Origin: Escherichia coli
GTDB lineage: Bacteria > Pseudomonadota > Gammaproteobacteria > Enterobacterales > Enterobacteriaceae
Assembly: GCF_036507355.1 (NCBI RefSeq)
Contig: NZ_AP027877.1
Strand: one strand, 5' to 3'
Length of the DNA stretch: 64,000 bases
A program made the position numbers and the translations under genes. Position 1 is the first letter of the stretch, and each line of letters starts with the position of its first letter. Positions 2,637 through 11,198 of the stretch are shown here, one piece after another. Under the pieces are notes generated by a model. It saw only the letters and a program-made list of their open reading frames with translations, had not been told where the DNA came from and did not search any database.

Positions 2637-3731
2637 TCACTGTTTCATACAACGCGCCCGCCGTTCGTCTACGCGCTTCGCAAACCAGGCCGTAGTCAGG
2701 TTGCGGGTGATTTTCGGGCTTTCCAGTTGAATGCCAGGCAACATTTCGCGGGGGAGTGATTTACCCGTTTTCGCTTCGGCAAGTTGATAAACTTTCTTGT
2801 ACAGCGCCGTCTCCTCAAAAGAGAAGCTGTCACCTTTCTCTAGCTGACGACGAATTTCGCTGTCGCTCATCCCCAGTTTTGCCGCCAGTTTGCGCGTTGC
2901 CAGTTCGGTTTTCCCGGGTTCTTTACTGTCGTAACGAATTAAATCACCGTCCAGTGCCAGCTTCACGCCGCTGGCCTTACTGACCGCGTTCTGAAACGCG
3001 GCATTACGGCTGGCATACCAGCCAGCGTTAAAATCAGCAAAACGGTATATCGGTGCGCTATAACTGGCGGGATAATTCAGTAAATGGTAAGTACCAAACC
3101 ACAACCCGCCGCGGCGACTAAAGACTTCCTGACGGACTGTACCGTCCATTTTCCACGGATACCCTTTGGTATGCTGTTCGGCAAAAGCAATGCTGACCTG
3201 CATCGGCCCACCGGTGCGCACCGGATTAAGCGAACCAAACAGCGTCTGCCCCATTGGCACCATGCTGATCAGATCGTCAAAAATCGCGCTCAATTGCTTT
3301 TCTGTACGCACCGAATCTAACCGTTCGCTATAACTTTTGCCGTTTGGCGATTTGATTTTTAGCGCGGTATGAACCAGAAAAGCAGGAATGTGCATCCGTT
3401 CAGCACGACGGTCAATCTCTTGCCAGGCGATCTTGCTTAAGCCCGGAACGGCCGGATCTGCCTGATAATTTGACTCCTGCTGCGCCATCGCCAGCACCGA
3501 GCAGACGTTTTCCAGCGTCGGTGCCAGCCCCTGACTTTCAAAGGTGATGGCGAGATCTTTCGCCCAAGCATCGCGGTCTTTCACGCTCGCAGGCATCTTC
3601 TGCCGCACGACGCTCGCCACATCTATCTCTTTTTCGCCCTTTTTCAACGGTTGCGGAGCCCGACTACTACACCCCGCTAAAACCAGAACCGCCAACAATG
3701 ACAGCGAAGATAGAGGATTGACGCGCGACAT
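2637..3731 (-). CDS. yaiW: Outer-membrane lipoprotein YaiW
   Basis: 364-aa ORF with lipoprotein signal MSRVNPLSSLSLLAVLVLAGCSS (lipobox LAGC); immediately downstream of sbmA. Confidence 0.85.
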   Translation of the reverse strand: MSRVNPLSSLSLLAVLVLAGCSSRAPQPLKKGEKEIDVASVVRQKMPASVKDRDAWAKDLAITFESQGLAPTLENVCSVLAMAQQESNYQADPAVPGLSKIAWQEIDRRAERMHIPAFLVHTALKIKSPNGKSYSERLDSVRTEKQLSAIFDDLISMVPMGQTLFGSLNPVRTGGPMQVSIAFAEQHTKGYPWKMDGTVRQEVFSRRGGLWFGTYHLLNYPASYSAPIYRFADFNAGWYASRNAAFQNAVSKASGVKLALDGDLIRYDSKEPGKTELATRKLAAKLGMSDSEIRRQLEKGDSFSFEETALYKKVYQLAEAKTGKSLPREMLPGIQLESPKITRNLTTAWFAKRVDERRARCMKQ

Positions 3732-3743
3732 TACTTCTCCTTT

Positions 3744-4964
3744 TTAGCTCAAGGTATGGGTTACTTCCTGAATTTTGTCACCATCCAGCTCATGTTCAAA
3801 GCTGCGCAGACGTTTGTAGATAGACATCAACTCAACCAGTGTGGTCCATGAGTTAATCAGGTACTGGAAAGCACCGCGAACCTGACCAAAAACGTTGGTA
3901 ATCTGCGTCATCAGGCCGAGCGTAATCGTACCGGCAACAATTGACGGAAACAGCAAGAACAAACCGAAAACGTTATCGACCTGCAAATAGAGAATGCGAG
4001 CGATGTTGAAATACATATAGTGAAAATAGAGGCGGAAATAGTTTTTCCGTACGGCGCTAAACAGCTCGCGTACCGTTGGCGGCGTCGCGCGCGTGGCATC
4101 GTCTTCACCATAAACCAGCTCTTTACGGTAGGCAGCCTCTACACGCTGGTTTTTAAACTCCAGCCCCGGCAGTTTGATCCCTACCACTGCCAGCAATCCG
4201 GTCCCCATCAGCGACCAGACGATAGCGGCAATCACCAGACCATACGGAATGTGCCCGATAATCGGCAGCTCCGGCACATGCGCGGAGAGCGTTACCAGCA
4301 CCGGCAGGAAGGCGATCAACGTCATGATGGCGTTGATAAAACTGACCCCCATATTCTCCAGCGTTGAAGCAAAACGCATGGTGTCTTCCTGCACACGCTG
4401 TGCGGCGCCTTCGATATGACGCAGTTGTTGCCAGTTCGCCATGTAATATTCGTTCATCGCCGTACGCCAGCGGAACACGTAGTGACTGACAAAGAAGTTA
4501 TTCAGCACACTGATCACTACCGCGATCAGCGCAATCCCCAGAAAGACGCCCACTTCGCGGTAAAATTGTTCGATAGTGACTTTATGCGGCGAACTTAGCG
4601 CGGTTTGAATCAGATCATAGAACGGTGCATACCAGGCGTTGACGGCAACCCCGACTTCCACCAAAAACCAGGTGACGAAGATGATCAGTGCAGTACCGAG
4701 TATTGACCAGTATTGCCAACGGTGCGGGCTGTAGATAAACCAGAACAATGCAAAAAGTCCTACGCAAACAATGTAGTAAGCGTAAAAAATCAGGAAATCC
4801 AACGACCAGAAACGCGCGGCGCTAATCGGGATCTGCCCGGAAGCGCCGGTGATACGCGCCACCCAGTCACCCCCACCGGCTTGCCAGAAGATAACGGCAA
4901 TCAATGCCCAAACAAAGGCCGAGAGAAAAAACGTTCCCGGCTTTGGGAAAAAAGACTTAAACAT
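3744..4964 (-). CDS. sbmA: Peptide antibiotic/microcin transporter SbmA
   Basis: 406 aa from [31 protein letters not shown]...; polytopic membrane protein; track ORF has a 2-codon upstream extension. Confidence 0.95.
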
Positions 4965-5315
4965 ATGCACTCCTGCTAACTTCTTATCGTTTTAACAACT
5001 GCTGTGTATTAACCGCATGACCGCTACAAAGCGTCAGCCAAATGAAACCGCCCATTGTGACCCATAGCAAGGCGCTTAGTTCGCCAGCCTGGCCATAAGA
5101 ATTGTTTCGACGGATTTCACAAACCAAAGATTGTTTACATAAGCGGATTAACACGCGCAGGATCACAAATGCAGGCATTGGTGAGCAGGAAAAAGATCGT
5201 GTTTACGCGCCGTTACGTTTTTAACACTATTATTGCACTAATGCGCCCTTTGCAATCCATCAATGAGTAGTATAAATACGCTCAGTTACCTTCATTCAAT
5301 TTATGGACACCACCG

Positions 5316-6473
5316 TTGAAACGTAGTCTGCTTTTTTCTGCCGTGCTGTGTGCGGCGTCATTGACCTCCGTCCATGCGGCGCAGCCGATCACTGAACCGG
5401 AGTTTGCCTCTGATATTGTCGATCGTTATGCCGATCATATTTTTTACGGCAGCGGTGCCACGGGGATGGCGCTGGTTGTTATCGACGGTAACCAGCGCGT
5501 CTTTCGCAGTTATGGCGAAACGCGACCTGGTAATAACGTTCGCCCGCAGCTGGATTCGGTCGTGCGTATTGCTTCCCTCACCAAGCTAATGACCAGTGAG
5601 ATGCTGGTGAAATTGCTCGACCAGGGGACCGTGAAGTTAAACGATCCGCTAAGTAAATATGCTCCGCCAGGCGCACGCGTGCCAACCTACAATGGGACGC
5701 CCATTACGCTGGTCAATCTGGCAACCCATACCAGCGCCCTGCCCCGTGAACAGCCCGGTGGCGCGGCACATCGTCCGGTGTTTGTCTGGCCAACGCGCGA
5801 GCAACGCTGGAAATACCTTTCTACGGCGAAGCTGAAAGCCGCGCCAGGCAGTCAGGCGGCGTACTCTAACCTTGCGTTCGACCTGCTGGCAGATGCACTG
5901 GCGAATGCGTCCGGCAAGCCTTATACCCAGTTGTTTGAAGAGCAGATTACCCGTCCATTGGGGATGAAAGACACCACCTACACCCCCTCACCGGATCAGT
6001 GCCGCCGTTTAATGGTTGCTGAGCGCGGTGCCAGTCCGTGCAATAACACGCTGGCGGCAATTGGCAGCGGCGGCGTCTATTCCACGCCTGGCGATATGAT
6101 GCGCTGGATGCAGCAGTATTTGTCATCTGATTTTTATCAGCGCAGTAACCAGGCAGATCGCATGCAGACGTTGATTTATCAGCGCGCGCAGTTTACGAAA
6201 GTGATTGGCATGGATGTCCCCGGCAAAGCGGATGCGCTTGGTTTAGGCTGGGTATATATGGCCCCGAAAGAGGGTCGTCCGGGGATTATTCAGAAGACAG
6301 GTGGTGGTGGCGGTTTCATTACCTATATGGCGATGATCCCGCAGAAGAATATTGGCGCGTTTGTGGTGGTCACTCGTTCGCCGTTGACGCGCTTTAAAAA
6401 TATGAGCGATGGCATCAATGATCTGGTGACCGAGCTAAGCGGGAATAAACCGTTGGTTATCCCCGCGTCCTGA
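5316..6473 (+). CDS. ampH: Penicillin-binding protein AmpH (class C beta-lactamase-like DD-peptidase)
   Basis: 385-aa ORF with TTG start, signal peptide MKRSLLFSAVLCAASLTSVHA and serine-hydrolase motif ASLTK. Confidence 0.9.
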   Translation: MKRSLLFSAVLCAASLTSVHAAQPITEPEFASDIVDRYADHIFYGSGATGMALVVIDGNQRVFRSYGETRPGNNVRPQLDSVVRIASLTKLMTSEMLVKLLDQGTVKLNDPLSKYAPPGARVPTYNGTPITLVNLATHTSALPREQPGGAAHRPVFVWPTREQRWKYLSTAKLKAAPGSQAAYSNLAFDLLADALANASGKPYTQLFEEQITRPLGMKDTTYTPSPDQCRRLMVAERGASPCNNTLAAIGSGGVYSTPGDMMRWMQQYLSSDFYQRSNQADRMQTLIYQRAQFTKVIGMDVPGKADALGLGWVYMAPKEGRPGIIQKTGGGGGFITYMAMIPQKNIGAFVVVTRSPLTRFKNMSDGINDLVTELSGNKPLVIPAS

Positions 6474-6865: not shown

Positions 6866-6920
6866 GGTGATGCTGCCAACTTACTGATTTAGTGTATGAT
6901 GGTGTTTTTGAGGTGCTCCA

Positions 6921-7196
6921 GTGGCTTCTGTTTCTATCAGCTGTCCCTCCTGTTCAGCTACTGACGGGGTGGTGCGTAACGGCAAAAGCACCGCCGGACA
7001 TCAGCGCTATCTCTGCTCTCACTGCCGTAAAACATGGCAACTGCAGTTCACTTACACCGCTTCTCAACCCGGTACGCACCAGAAAATCATTGATATGGCC
7101 ATGAATGGCGTTGGATGCCGGGCAACAGCCCGCATTATGGGCGTTGGCCTCAACACGATTTTACGTCACTTAAAAAACTCAGGCCGCAGTCGGTAA
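6921..7196 (+). CDS. insA: IS1 protein InsA
   Basis: 91-aa [43 protein letters not shown]... (zinc-finger/HTH InsA). Confidence 0.9.
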
Positions 7197-7618
7197 CCTC
7201 GCGCATACAGCCGGGCAGTGACGTCATCGTCTGCGCGGAAATGGACGAACAGTGGGGCTATGTCGGGGCTAAATCGCGCCAGCGCTGGCTGTTTTACGCG
7301 TATGACAGGCTCCGGAAGACGGTTGTTGCGCACGTATTCGGTGAACGCACGATGGCGACGCTGGGGCGTCTTATGAGCCTGCTGTCACCCTTTGACGTGG
7401 TGATATGGATGACGGATGGCTGGCCGCTGTATGAATCCCGCCTGAAGGGAAAGCTGCACGTAATCAGCAAGCGATATACGCAGCGAATTGAGCGGCATAA
7501 CCTGAATCTGAGGCAGCACCTGGCACGGCTGGGACGGAAGTCGCTGTCGTTCTCAAAATCGGTGGAGCTGCATGACAAAGTCATCGGGCATTATCTGAAC
7601 ATAAAACACTATCAATAA
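7115..7618 (+). CDS. insB: IS1 InsB reading frame (transposase made as InsAB' by -1 frameshift)
   Basis: 167-aa -1-frame ORF overlapping the insA 3' end; slippery A6C motif TTAAAAAACTC at about 7171-7180. Confidence 0.85.
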
Positions 7619-7633
7619 GTTGGAGTCATTACC

Positions 7634-7961: not shown

Positions 7962-8132
<171 letters not shown>

Positions 8133-8150
8133 TGAATCGCCACGGATAAT

Positions 8151-8963
8151 CTAGACACTTCCGAGCCGTTGATAATACTGGTTTTCATATTCTGTCGGTG
8201 ACATCTGATCGCTGGAACCATGCCGACGCTTACTGTTATAAAACATTTCGATGTAATCAAAAATATCGCTGCGGGCTTCTTCCCGCGTTCCGTAGATCTT
8301 TTTCTTTATCCGTTCGCGTTTCAACAACTGGAAAAAGCTTTCTGCAACCGCATTATCATGGCAGTTACCGCGACGGCTCATGCTGCCATCCAGGCCGTGT
8401 GATTTCAGGAACGACTGCCACTCATGGCTTGTGTACTGACTGCCCTGATCCGAATGAACCAGCACCTGTTTTTGGGGATTACGGCGCCATACAGCCATCA
8501 GCAGTGCGTTCAGGACAATGTCCTTTGTCATCCGGGATTGCATGGACCAGCCGATAATTTTGCGTGAGAACAGATCAACAACCACGGCAAGATACAGCCA
8601 GCCTTCGTGGGTCCTGATGTAGGTTATGTCCGTTACCCAACGCTTATCCGGAGCATCCGGATTGAACTGTCGCTGGAGCCTGTTGGGCGACACGATACTG
8701 GCCTCGCCTTTACGTGCCCGCGGGCTCCGGTATCCGACCTGAGCCTTTATCCCGACACGTTTCATCAGTCGCCAGACTCTGTTCACTCCGCACTGTTGCC
8801 CGCTGTCCCGCAGATCCAGATGGATTTTGCGATAACCATAGACGCATCCCGATTCCAGCCAGAACTGTTTAATCTGCCCTGTCAGCCTCAGGTCTGCCTG
8901 ATGGCGTTGTGAATGCGGCTGCTGAAGCCAGGCGTAAAAACCACTGGGATGAACATCCAGCAC
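8151..8963 (-). CDS. IS3-family transposase OrfB (DDE integrase domain)
   Basis: 270-aa ORF with DDE-type motifs (...WVTDITYIRTHEGWLYLAVVVDLFSRKIIGW..., ...LVHSDQGSQYTS..., ...AVAESFFQLLKRE...). Confidence 0.9.
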   Translation of the reverse strand: MLDVHPSGFYAWLQQPHSQRHQADLRLTGQIKQFWLESGCVYGYRKIHLDLRDSGQQCGVNRVWRLMKRVGIKAQVGYRSPRARKGEASIVSPNRLQRQFNPDAPDKRWVTDITYIRTHEGWLYLAVVVDLFSRKIIGWSMQSRMTKDIVLNALLMAVWRRNPQKQVLVHSDQGSQYTSHEWQSFLKSHGLDGSMSRRGNCHDNAVAESFFQLLKRERIKKKIYGTREEARSDIFDYIEMFYNSKRRHGSSDQMSPTEYENQYYQRLGSV

Positions 8964-9019
8964 CCGACAGAGCAGGCGAACAGGCCAGCAACAGGTGTTG
9001 TCACGGATAAAGGCGTACC

Positions 9020-9304
9020 TCAGTCGGACAGCTTTGCGAAGTACGCCGCGGCTTTTTTTAATATGTCCCGTTCGTCGGTAACCCGCTTCAGCTCTTTCTG
9101 GAGACGGCGGATCTCGGCCTGAGCATCTGACTGTTCTTTATTAGCGGAAGAATCCGGACCGTACTTCTTTATCCAGGCGTAAAGGCTGTGGGTGGTGATA
9201 TCGAGACGTGTTGCAACGCTGGCAACAGAATAACCGCGATCAACAACCTGTTTGACTGCTTCAATTTTAAACTCTTCGGGATAACGCTTACCGCTCATGG
9301 GCAC
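9020..9304 (-). CDS. IS3-family OrfA (HTH/leucine-zipper protein)
   Basis: 94-aa ORF MPMSGKRYPEEFKIEAVKQVVDRGYSVASVATRLDITTHSLYAWIKKYG... Confidence 0.9.
   Translation of the reverse strand: MPMSGKRYPEEFKIEAVKQVVDRGYSVASVATRLDITTHSLYAWIKKYGPDSSANKEQSDAQAEIRRLQKELKRVTDERDILKKAAAYFAKLSD
9040..9062 (-). other. Probable programmed -1 ribosomal frameshift site of the IS3-family element
   Basis: An A7 run on the coding strand (T7 at 9053-9059 on +) sits in the 0 frame as ttA AAA AAA Gcc near the OrfA 3' end, as in IS3-family OrfAB frameshift windows. Confidence 0.6.
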
Positions 9305-9361
9305 CTCTCTTTAAGCCATCTTAAATGACTCTGAGGTGTCTGTTAAACCCGTGGCGATTCA

Positions 9362-9699
9362 CCATGAATCAGGGAGTTGCTGATGTTCAACTGGTTTGTT
9401 GTTCCATCAGTAAAGTCATGATTCAGGTAATATGTAGAGATAGCCCCGTTAACAGTGTCACCATTAAAGGTGGTATCGAAATCACCGTTTGTGTTGTTAT
9501 AGTAGACAAAGCCACTATAATTCACATAGTTACCATCTACAGTACCCGGTGCATCCATATTGCTCCAGTCAAGAGCAGTAGTTGGATTGTCGTAATAAGT
9601 CCAGGTGTCATAAGTAGTTGCATTAGCCTGAGAGGTGATAGCCAGAGTGCAAGCCAATGCTAATTGTGATACTACAAGTTTCTTTTTCCAGGAGTGCAT
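9362..9699 (-). pseudogene. 5' remnant of an autotransporter-like gene (yaiT-like), signal peptide and start of passenger
   Basis: ORF begins MHSWKKKLVVSQLALACTLAITSQANA (Sec signal) followed by a Tyr/Asn/Thr/Asp-rich segment; the frame runs into the IS terminal repeat and stops. Confidence 0.55.
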
Positions 9700-10223
9700 T
9701 TGTCATCCCTCCTCAGGGACGTAATAAGTTGATCCATCAATTATCAATGCATAGAAAACATCTTATGTTTCGCGTTTACGATTATGCGGCGTTATAGAGG
9801 AATGGTTCAATTATTCTTTCCCCTAAGTCCGATTGCGGACATATATAAAAATATCTATACGCACAAAGAATAAGTTGACAAAAACACTGCATTTCAACAC
9901 GTTAATGAAATCATTAATTTTGAATTATAGATCCTGAAAATACCAAAACAACAAATCAGACAAATAATTTATCAATAAACAATGAACTTTAAGTAATTCA
10001 ATTTTTGACAGTTCAACCAAATTAGCAAAAATAATAACCAGCACCTATAAATAAAAATTAAAAATATTTTCAGTGAATATGAAATTATTGCTATTTCTAT
10101 TACAAAGATGTCCTGGCCTCTCTTCCATTCTCTTCTTGTCAACATCGCGACAACTTTCGTAAAACATCCCCACCCTGCTTCAGGTATACTATGCCCCTCG
10201 ATTCCACAAACATCAGGCAGACC

Positions 10224-11198
10224 ATGACAGACTTAATCCAACGCCCTCGTCGCCTGCGCAAATCTCCTGCGCTGCGCGCTATGTTTGAAGAGACAACACT
10301 TAGCCTTAACGACCTGGTGTTGCCGATCTTTGTTGAAGAAGAAATTGACGACTACAAAGCCGTTGAAGCCATGCCAGGCGTGATGCGCATTCCAGAGAAA
10401 CATCTGGCACGCGAAATTGAACGCATCGCCAACGCCGGTATTCGTTCCGTGATGACTTTTGGCATCTCTCACCATACCGATGAAACCGGCAGCGATGCCT
10501 GGCGGGAAGATGGACTGGTGGCGCGTATGTCGCGCATCTGCAAGCAGACAGTGCCAGAAATGATTGTCATGTCAGACACCTGTTTCTGTGAATACACTTC
10601 TCACGGTCACTGCGGTGTGCTGTGCGAGCATGGCGTCGACAACGACGCGACTCTGGAAAATTTAGGCAAGCAAGCCGTGGTTGCAGCTGCTGCAGGTGCA
10701 GACTTCATCGCCCCTTCCGCCGCGATGGATGGCCAGGTACAGGCGATTCGCCAGGCGCTGGACGCTGCTGGCTTTAAAGATACGGCGATTATGTCGTATT
10801 CGACCAAGTTCGCCTCCTCCTTTTATGGTCCGTTCCGTGAAGCTGCCGGAAGCGCATTAAAAGGCGACCGCAAAAGCTATCAGATGAACCCAATGAACCG
10901 TCGTGAGGCGATTCGTGAGTCACTGCTGGATGAAGCCCAGGGCGCAGACTGCCTGATGGTTAAACCTGCTGGAGCGTACCTCGACATCGTGCGTGAGCTG
11001 CGTGAACGTACTGAATTGCCGATTGGCGCGTATCAGGTGAGCGGTGAGTACGCGATGATTAAGTTCGCCGCGCTGGCGGGTGCTATAGATGAAGAGAAAG
11101 TGGTGCTCGAAAGCTTAGGTTCGATTAAGCGTGCGGGTGCGGATCTGATTTTCAGCTACTTTGCGCTGGATTTGGCTGAGAAGAAGATTCTGCGTTAA
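10224..11198 (+). CDS. hemB: Porphobilinogen synthase (delta-aminolevulinic acid dehydratase)
   Basis: 324 aa from [40 protein letters not shown]...; track ORF starts 11 codons upstream. Confidence 0.95.

Follow-up and report, generated by a model that had tools for sequence, protein, structure and literature searches.

The closest described relatives of the locus analysed here, an intergenic region beside hemB in Escherichia coli, are upaC of the UPEC strain CFT073 and yaiU of Salmonella Typhimurium. In UPEC, this locus encodes UpaC, which secondary accounts count among the autotransporters repressed by H-NS (PMC5012682 and PMC6956023, both citing Allsopp et al. 2012), and EhaB, which is 'also called UpaC', has been described in two forms, EhaB and UpaC being allelic variants of a single gene (PMC8281228). 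That c0478 is the gene beside hemB in CFT073 follows from secondary statements combined with the locus annotation, and the H-NS-bound fragment is likewise known from secondary statements. The Salmonella gene yaiU is the same as seaB and represents the positional orthologue of ehaB adjoining hemB (PMC13248724). It has been presented as a previously reported H-NS-repressed gene, and the binding of H-NS to its promoter was documented by EMSA, ITC (Kd 0.29-0.46 uM) and ChIP-qPCR, this binding being lowered by c-di-GMP (PMC10657408). For K-12, a genomic-SELEX table places an H-NS site in the yaiU-yaiV spacer, that is, at the opposite end of the gene (PMC3946193). Our literature search for yaiT together with H-NS or hns returned nothing relevant.

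Other adhesins share several of these characteristics. Like the genes above, upaH, upaG/ehaG, the F9 fimbriae and the cryptic adhesins of K-12 have AT-rich upstream DNA, are cryptic in the laboratory and become derepressed in hns mutants (PMC5012682, PMC6956023). Many of these H-NS-silenced adhesins are accessory or island-borne, whereas the ehaB locus belongs to the E. coli core genome and its synteny extends over several genera.

The divergent region between hemB and ehaB

We analysed a stretch of 64 kb of E. coli DNA (the window), for which the gene map was obtained by transferring with blastn the RefSeq annotation of the closest complete genome, that of E. coli Combat11I9. The gene order is iraP-ddlA-yaiZYW-sbmA-ampH-iprA-[autotransporter]-hemB-tauDCBA, followed by lac, cyn, cod and prp and then yah. 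The number of IS elements had raised the possibility of a Shigella origin, which was discarded because the lac, mhp, prp and cyn operons are intact by the same blastn mapping and the best matches are to E. coli.

The interval 9700-10223 comprises the 524 bp that separate the ATG of an autotransporter remnant (9699, minus strand) from the ATG of hemB (10224, plus strand). It is the longest interval of the window free of annotated genes, as an earlier note on this DNA had stated, the runners-up being codB-prpE (423 bp) and yahM-yahL (412 bp). The equivalent gap in K-12, at 389,728-390,250 of NC_000913.3, measures 523 bp and carries no annotated feature. We conclude that 9700-10223 is the divergent regulatory region common to hemB (rightward) and to the adhesin gene ehaB/upaC/yaiT (leftward). 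The promoter region proposed in the earlier note is indeed one, of the divergent kind and with an AT-rich core upstream of the autotransporter adhesin gene. The following features were recognised in and around it:

8133-9361, minus strand: IS3-family insertion sequence of 1229 bp, replacing ~2.47 kb of the autotransporter gene
~9361-9699, minus strand: 5' remnant of ehaB/upaC/yaiT (339 bp), encoding the signal peptide MHSWKKKLVVSQLALACTLA and the first ~90 passenger residues
9700-9775, minus strand: putative ehaB 5' leader (~76 nt), near-invariant in 17 Escherichia/Citrobacter sequences and in five genera
9781-9810, minus strand: sigma-70-like ehaB promoter, with -35 TTGAAC (9810-9805), an 18-bp spacer and -10 CATAAT (9786-9781)
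9827-9840, no strand assigned: palindrome GTCCGATTGCGGAC, candidate site for a dimeric regulator, with its centre ~59 bp upstream of the presumed ehaB start
9849-10045, no strand assigned: AT-rich core (GC 0.26) upstream of the ehaB promoter, putative H-NS binding/silencing platform
10046-10135, no strand assigned: second AT-rich block (CTATAAATAAAAATTAAAAATATTTTCAGTGAATATGAAATTATTGC...), conserved within Escherichia only
10151-10223, plus strand: putative hemB promoter-proximal region and leader, with elements invariant in Escherichia and Citrobacter
10224-11198, plus strand: hemB, porphobilinogen synthase of 324 aa, 98.9% identical to the annotated hemB of Combat11I9

The list of open reading frames also gives an older upstream start of hemB at 10191.

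The gene to the left of the interval has received several names. RefSeq uses ehaB for the intact gene at this position, the K-12 counterpart is the pseudogene yaiT, and ehaB, upaC and yaiT designate the same gene, which is yaiU/seaB in Salmonella. In the window it is truncated and divergent from hemB, as had been correctly recognised before. E. coli Combat11I9 has an intact version of the gene, coding for 992 aa, and the 5' remnant matches its nt 2641-2979 with 100% identity (blastn). The open frame of the remnant continues into the insertion sequence up to a stop at 9343. The only other surviving piece corresponds to 171 bp of the 3' end (7962-8132). The IS3-family element has 38-bp imperfect terminal inverted repeats (8133-8170 and 9324-9361), its OrfA (9020-9304) and OrfB (8151-8963) match NF033516 (IS3 family transposase), and its end also matches plasmids and many other positions in E. 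coli genomes. An IS1 interrupts iprA. The IS elements at the locus are later insertions into the gene.

Comparison with the two described relatives showed both shared and divergent traits. In CFT073, upaC (Allsopp et al. 2012, Infect Immun 80:321) occupies the same locus and points away from hemB, the 525 bp between the two genes including a GC trough; it differs from the window in having a core of another allele class (~73% identical to that of the window in the B2-type allele) and in being intact, whereas the gene is destroyed here. The Salmonella Typhimurium orthologue lies between hemB and iprA, with a gap of 512 bp whose AT-rich core is unalignable with that of E. coli. It shares with the window, almost unchanged, the -35 and -10 hexamers, the outer palindrome arms and the final 55 nt of the leader.

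Base composition of the interval

The strong AT bias and the many A/T runs attributed to the interval in the earlier note were confirmed by our measurements. The GC content of 9700-10223 is 0.332, to be compared with 0.526 for the whole window and 0.454 for the rest of its intergenic DNA taken together, and the density of A-tracts reaches its maximum here (20 per 250 bp vs 4.5 +/- 2.6). The AT-rich portion is confined to 9822-10150 (GC 0.28), the two ends (9700-9820 and 10150-10223) having the composition of ordinary intergenic DNA.

GC profiling, one of the checks suggested in that note, confirmed the observation with some qualifications. On the one hand, the core holds the lowest GC of the window as well as the peak of A-tract density; the minimum over 300 bp in all 64 kb is 0.25, starting at 9801, ~4.9 sd under the mean. 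On the other hand, the interval taken as a whole is no GC outlier among the intergenic regions of the window (z = -1.6), two shorter ones having equal or lower values. Moreover, the window contains two further AT-rich islands of similar size and class, at 182-512 (GC 0.284) and 59629-59990 (GC 0.315), and the composition of the tract is therefore not special to the hemB/ehaB locus. The AT-rich tract is real yet ordinary, a known kind of element at a known locus.

Conserved promoter, palindrome and leader of ehaB

We compared sets of 7 E. coli alleles, 17 Escherichia/Citrobacter sequences and 12 sequences from five genera. Across the five genera, the interval is made of three parts, namely an ultraconserved ehaB side (9700-9848), the variable AT-rich core (~9849-10045) and a hemB-proximal block. 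A 206-bp block at the 5' end of ehaB was found, in single copy, in 5412 of the 5426 complete E. coli genomes (99.7%), with at least 95% identity in 5376 of them. Identity to Salmonella reaches 98% over the final 55 nt of the leader and 97% over the initial 60 nt of coding sequence, against ~45% at four-fold-type silent sites of hemB. Judged from these alignments, the conservation of the leader and early coding sequence reflects a constraint that operates at the nucleotide level.

The sigma-70-like promoter of ehaB was found by a consensus scan, and both its hexamers are invariant in the five genera, with a spacer that varies. The promoter/terminator scan called three promoter-like sites against 2.8 expected, and conservation backs only the one of ehaB. 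A strong-looking candidate, TTGACA-16-AAAAAT (10005-10032), was rejected: its position is within the hypervariable core, and alleles of the K-12 type do not conserve it. As for the palindrome, it occurs once in the window against 0.55 times expected by chance, so that its single occurrence is not significant in itself and its weight comes from its conservation. None of the aligned genera departs from its outer arms, GTCC/GGAC; the 4-nt centre is free to vary, and the inner arm base is mostly G but A in K-12 and E. whittamii. Invariant hexamers, palindrome arms and leader, together with a variable spacer and centre, form the conservation pattern of a working promoter accompanied by a regulator site. 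Kept base for base across genera, the promoter, palindrome and leader of ehaB/seaB offer concrete sites for work on adhesin regulation.

The leader would start at ~9775, a position deduced from that of the -10 hexamer. Its predicted fold (z = -1.65) places the Shine-Dalgarno sequence GGAGG (9712-9708) inside a 7-bp hairpin, CGUCCCU/AGGGAUG; another hairpin, UUGA-UGGA-UCAA (9740-9729), has a GGA in its loop. For 10 leaders taken from five genera, RNAalifold returned +0.88 as the covariation term and a double change in 1 of the 28 pairs; the leader shows no covariation because it hardly varies. Leaders controlled by CsrA are recognised by CsrA binding together with two or more GGA motifs, of which one occupies a hairpin loop and another overlaps the Shine-Dalgarno sequence. 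An arrangement of this type, with UUGA-UGGA-UCAA and GAGGAGGGAUG over the Shine-Dalgarno sequence, is predicted from sequence and fold in the ehaB leader, where it is invariant. In our reading, the ehaB leader may therefore resemble those of CsrA-controlled genes, a likeness that we propose as a lead only; a literature search for yaiU or ehaB with CsrA found no paper linking them.

A core of variable sequence, fixed length and fixed composition

Between the allele classes of E. coli, of which there are at least three or four (among them the O157-like class of the window, the K-12 class and the B2 class), the core is 63-74% identical, with a length of 195-198 bp and a GC content of 0.25-0.31. 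Between genera it is unalignable, yet AT-rich in each, its GC content ranging from 17 to 31% across at least five genera. It is found at a median of one place per genome (maximum two). Across E. coli, 379 genomes have a core at least 95% identical to that of the window, 1058 have one with 80-90% identity and 2943 one with 60-80%, and ~1000 genomes have no match. The core of the window is 85% identical to that of E. whittamii and 65% to that of K-12, the respective values for hemB being 95% and 98.8%; by these identities, core alleles cut across species.

Core and passenger alleles are also uncoupled from each other. Combat11I9 and strain 124 have cores 96% identical and passenger sequences ~40-77% identical in 100-bp windows; comparisons among E. 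coli alleles give 40-80% identity for the passenger domain. The simplest reading of the deep core allele classes is relaxed sequence constraint plus recombination; balancing selection or introgression may also lie behind them.

Switched or alternative alleles of intergenic regions have reportedly been found in bacterial pan-genomes, in studies by Oren et al. (2014, PNAS) and Thorpe et al. (2018, Piggy). The locus studied here is like them in that the same genes flank sharply differing classes of segments within one species. Unlike switched alleles, however, the core alleles are homologous and of equal length (63-74% identity, vs ~33% expected for unrelated DNA of this composition), and, unlike in a replacement by unrelated DNA, the middle 200 bp alone varies, both promoters being fixed. 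The core provides a clean natural example of ~200 bp that keep their composition and length at 63-74% identity next to an adjoining 206 bp that are at least 95% identical in 5376/5426 genomes, and it may interest those who work on intergenic evolution.

A joint reading of the two sides of the ehaB upstream region is possible, although we hold it with little confidence. It would combine (i) an undescribed conserved control module of ehaB/seaB, consisting of the palindrome at ~-59 and the leader/early coding sequence, the leader possibly being a CsrA-type translational switch, and (ii) a silencer in which composition and length, not sequence, are selected, with allele classes older than the Escherichia species.

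The AT-rich tract and the adhesin gene

To see how the tract is distributed, we sampled the locus by scanning one genome per species for the N-terminus of HemB. All 15 Escherichia/Citrobacter loci with an autotransporter start (15/15) have a gap of 487-626 bp with the same GC trough, which is also present in Salmonella (512 bp, with a 200-bp core of 17-18% GC), Superficieibacter (600 bp), Phytobacter (471 bp) and CFT073 (525 bp). Overall, gaps range from 471 to 626 bp and mostly from 487 to 525 bp. Citrobacter sp. Cu233 and wls619 are devoid of both iprA and the autotransporter. In these two, ampH ends 156 bp before hemB and the DNA upstream of hemB has no AT-rich tract, its GC content being 46-62% in every 50-bp bin. 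In C. amalonaticus, the autotransporter is decayed and only ~100 bp of AT-rich DNA are left, comparable to the block 10046-10135. Since the tract was lost together with the adhesin gene in two Citrobacter while hemB stayed, the tract belongs to ehaB and hemB does not need it.

Probable silencing by H-NS

The binding of H-NS to AT-rich DNA depends little on sequence, and the protein forms polymers along the DNA. A high AT content over at least ~100 bp near the promoter characterises H-NS-silenced promoters, and the segment 9822-10150 has it, with a GC content of 0.28 vs 0.526. We consider it probable, at roughly three chances in four, that the AT-rich stretch serves as an H-NS landing platform that silences ehaB in intact alleles, by analogy with its orthologues. 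This analysis established the anatomy of the region, its conservation and its co-occurrence with the autotransporter, and the evidence of H-NS binding and repression comes from the papers on the orthologues; the start sites, the occupancy of this strain's DNA by H-NS and what the palindrome and leader do are inferred. The earlier note had called the composition of the region typical of promoter regions that are horizontally acquired and silenced by a nucleoid protein. The second half of this description is supported by orthology, through the H-NS evidence for upaC and yaiU, but the first half is not supported by the distribution of the locus, as discussed below.

Read from the ehaB side, the arrangement would consist of a ~76-nt leader with a strong Shine-Dalgarno sequence, the sigma-70-type promoter, the palindrome, ~200-300 bp of DNA with 23-28% GC, and the promoter and leader of hemB. 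H-NS would nucleate on the AT-rich core and spread across the ehaB promoter. In the intact allele, low GC (39-44%) carries on through the passenger-coding region, and in intact alleles H-NS would spread further into this region, leaving the adhesin cryptic. The repression could be lifted when H-NS binding is weakened under some conditions, or by a dedicated activator that might act at the palindrome; in Salmonella, raised c-di-GMP brings this relief. A core that drifts and recombines with its length and AT content fixed fits with H-NS reading composition and not sequence.

In the strain analysed here, the silencer would be a leftover, given that the IS3-family element has destroyed ehaB. Only the hemB side, that is, the last ~75-155 bp of the interval, would still be needed, with the hemB promoter at the right edge still in use and the silencer vestigial. 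The tract appears to be an expected feature, namely upstream DNA of the H-NS-type silenced kind that goes with a cryptic adhesin gene and occupies the same gap as a housekeeping gene, and no gene is left for it to control here.

Several observations nevertheless weigh against an H-NS platform. AT-richness may also come from mutation bias on unconstrained DNA, there are the two equally AT-rich islands elsewhere in the window, and the interval showed no in-silico hallmark beyond AT-richness itself. The H-NS motif is represented by one site with one mismatch to TCGATAAATT, namely TTGATAAATT (9966-9975, minus strand), which is equalled or beaten in 15% of composition-matched shuffles. The A-tract count of 21 compares with 17.9 +/- 2.1 in dinucleotide shuffles (~1.5 sd above), and no IHF consensus stood out in it above composition-matched shuffles. 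For curvature, whose profiling the earlier note had also recommended, the proxy used was AA/TT periodicity of 10-11 bp, and it showed no excess in the interval. The missing motif and phasing signals are, however, a weak counter-argument, as H-NS binds AT-rich DNA generally.

Alternative explanations

The core might instead be a neutral spacer that has drifted to an AT-rich mutational equilibrium, with H-NS binding incidental and without regulatory effect. Its hypervariability, with 63-74% identity within the species and unalignable sequences between genera, is what such a spacer would display, and neither the H-NS and IHF motifs nor phasing nor promoter-like sites are enriched with respect to shuffles. 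In addition, the tract can vanish while hemB remains. Yet the gap (mostly 487-525 bp), the core (195-198 bp) and the GC content (17-31%) are held in at least five genera despite saturated sequence, the GC content of the tract is far under that of the pooled intergenic DNA (0.454), and orthologous promoters have been found experimentally to be bound and repressed by H-NS. We therefore regard a neutral spacer as improbable, while noting that it is not fully exclusive of an H-NS platform, since H-NS needs only composition.

Alternatively, the tract could be an activating region that boosts the hemB promoter from upstream, in the manner of an UP-element, of curved DNA or of a platform for Fis or IHF. 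On the hemB side, CAACTTTCGTAA (10151-10162), GGTATACT (with the -10-like TATACT at 10185-10190) and TTCGATTCCACAAACATCAGGCA.ACC before the ATG are invariant. Of the two sigma-70 promoters to be expected in a divergent region, the one of ehaB is complete, and that of hemB shows the conserved -10-like TATACT and the upstream CAACTTTCGTAA without a -35. The consensus scan called no hemB promoter at 10151-10223, where a good -35 is missing; the hemB promoter there is putative, with a predicted start at ~10197 on the plus strand. A gene without a recognisable -35 might need help from upstream, and the block 10046-10135 is well conserved within Escherichia (90-99% identity among alleles), so that it could be an upstream element for hemB or else the hemB-side edge of the silencer. 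Nevertheless, this block is not conserved in Citrobacter, though the hemB core elements are, and the two Citrobacter mentioned above keep hemB although only 156 bp of DNA with normal GC content precede it and the AT tract is missing. Furthermore, A-tract phasing was not found, and the AT tract co-occurs with the start of the autotransporter and not with hemB, all of which makes an activating role for hemB quite improbable, more so than a neutral spacer.

Least probable of all is an interval that hides an unannotated small protein, small RNA or mobile-element relic: although ORFs of 34-57 codons are listed (including one of 39 codons that ends in ATGA on the hemB start) and conservation of the ehaB leader greatly exceeds that of neutral sites, the K-12 annotation is empty here, the conserved leader is explained as the ehaB 5' UTR, and the core is single-copy and devoid of terminal repeats. 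The small ORFs at 10108-10227 (plus strand), 9972-10145 (minus strand) and 9657-9797 (plus strand), of 39, 57 and 46 codons, respectively, were discarded on account of stops or frameshifts in other Escherichia alleles. An Rfam scan of 9000-10800 at E <= 1 retrieved no relevant family, the single hit being a chance RT-15 match inside hemB, and the search for repeats or mobile-element relics in the interval retrieved only short repeats at chance level and no terminal repeats.

An old locus shared by five genera

Horizontal acquisition, suggested by the composition of the tract in the earlier note, found no support. The order hemB/autotransporter/iprA/ampH and the AT-rich gap of 471-626 bp are syntenic in Escherichia, Citrobacter, Salmonella, Superficieibacter and Phytobacter. 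The patchy distribution or mobile context that would mark xenogeneic DNA was not found, the position between hemB and iprA being the same in the five genera. By the presence of its ehaB 5' block in 5412/5426 E. coli genomes and its own presence in these five genera, the locus is an old one, kept vertically as part of the core genome. Signs of exchange between genera concern the passenger alleles only, one E. coli passenger allele having 88% protein identity to a Salmonella protein.

Sequence variation between ehaB and hemB

The 524-bp gap between the divergent genes ehaB (- strand, start 9699) and hemB (+ strand, start 10224) holds both strongly conserved and hypervariable sequence. E. coli and Salmonella share 97-98% identity in the ehaB leader (seaB in Salmonella; 9700-9775) and the first 20 codons (9640-9699), both on the - strand, versus ~45% at hemB silent sites. 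The predicted fold of the ehaB leader places its Shine-Dalgarno sequence within a 7-bp hairpin and a GGA in the loop of a second hairpin, a layout that resembles CsrA-controlled leaders. A search of Rfam gave no family match to this leader, and covariation in the hairpins is not possible given the invariant sequence.

The AT-rich core (9849-10045) is hypervariable within E. coli, with 63-74% identity among allele classes and length maintained at 195-198 bp. Its alleles cluster across species: the allele in the window has 85% identity to E. whittamii versus 65% to K-12, a grouping contrary to the hemB tree.

In the closest complete E. coli genome, Combat11I9, ehaB is intact and its 5' end is identical to the remnant in the window; its passenger allele (L001 locus, 3361-6339) shows 88% identity to an autotransporter of Salmonella enterica (P0004). 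Identities of 79-81% were seen for several more full-length representatives of clusters, which carry the names E. coli or Citrobacter. These matches suggest that passenger alleles have been exchanged between genera.

Candidate regulatory site and hemB start

Two further features of the gap are:
9827-9840: palindrome GTCCGATTGCGGAC, upstream of ehaB and ~59 bp from its inferred start
10108-10227: 39-codon upstream ORF with an ATGA overlap with the hemB start codon

The outer arms of the palindrome (GTCC/GGAC) are invariant across the five genera compared while its centre is free to vary, making it a candidate site for a dimeric regulator; IprA, the product of the neighbouring gene, would be a candidate for that role. 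The B2 allele interrupts the 39-codon ORF. An older annotation gives hemB a longer form that starts at the ATG at 10191, immediately after the invariant -10-like TATACT (10185-10190) and with a one-base overlap (10185-10193); this position favours the start at 10224, predicting a protein of 324 aa.

Insertions and deletions at the locus

Two insertion elements were found:
6866-7633: IS1, interrupting iprA
8133-9361: IS3-family element of 1229 bp with 38-bp terminal inverted repeats, replacing ~2.47 kb of missing ehaB

Thus, two neighbouring genes of the locus are inactivated in this strain. The ehaB/IS junction at 9361 is shared by none of the complete E. coli genomes searched, the best match beginning exactly at this position. 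Citrobacter provides natural deletions of the iprA-autotransporter segment: Citrobacter sp. Cu233 and wls619 have 156 bp from the ampH end to hemB, and C. amalonaticus has an autotransporter reduced to a run of broken ORFs extending to 253 bp before hemB.

Other AT-rich islands

Two islands in the window have the same size and GC as the tract upstream of ehaB and are likely further nucleoid-protein targets:
182-512: GC 0.284, upstream of iraP, covering a small hypothetical gene
59629-59990: GC 0.315, at yahL-yahK
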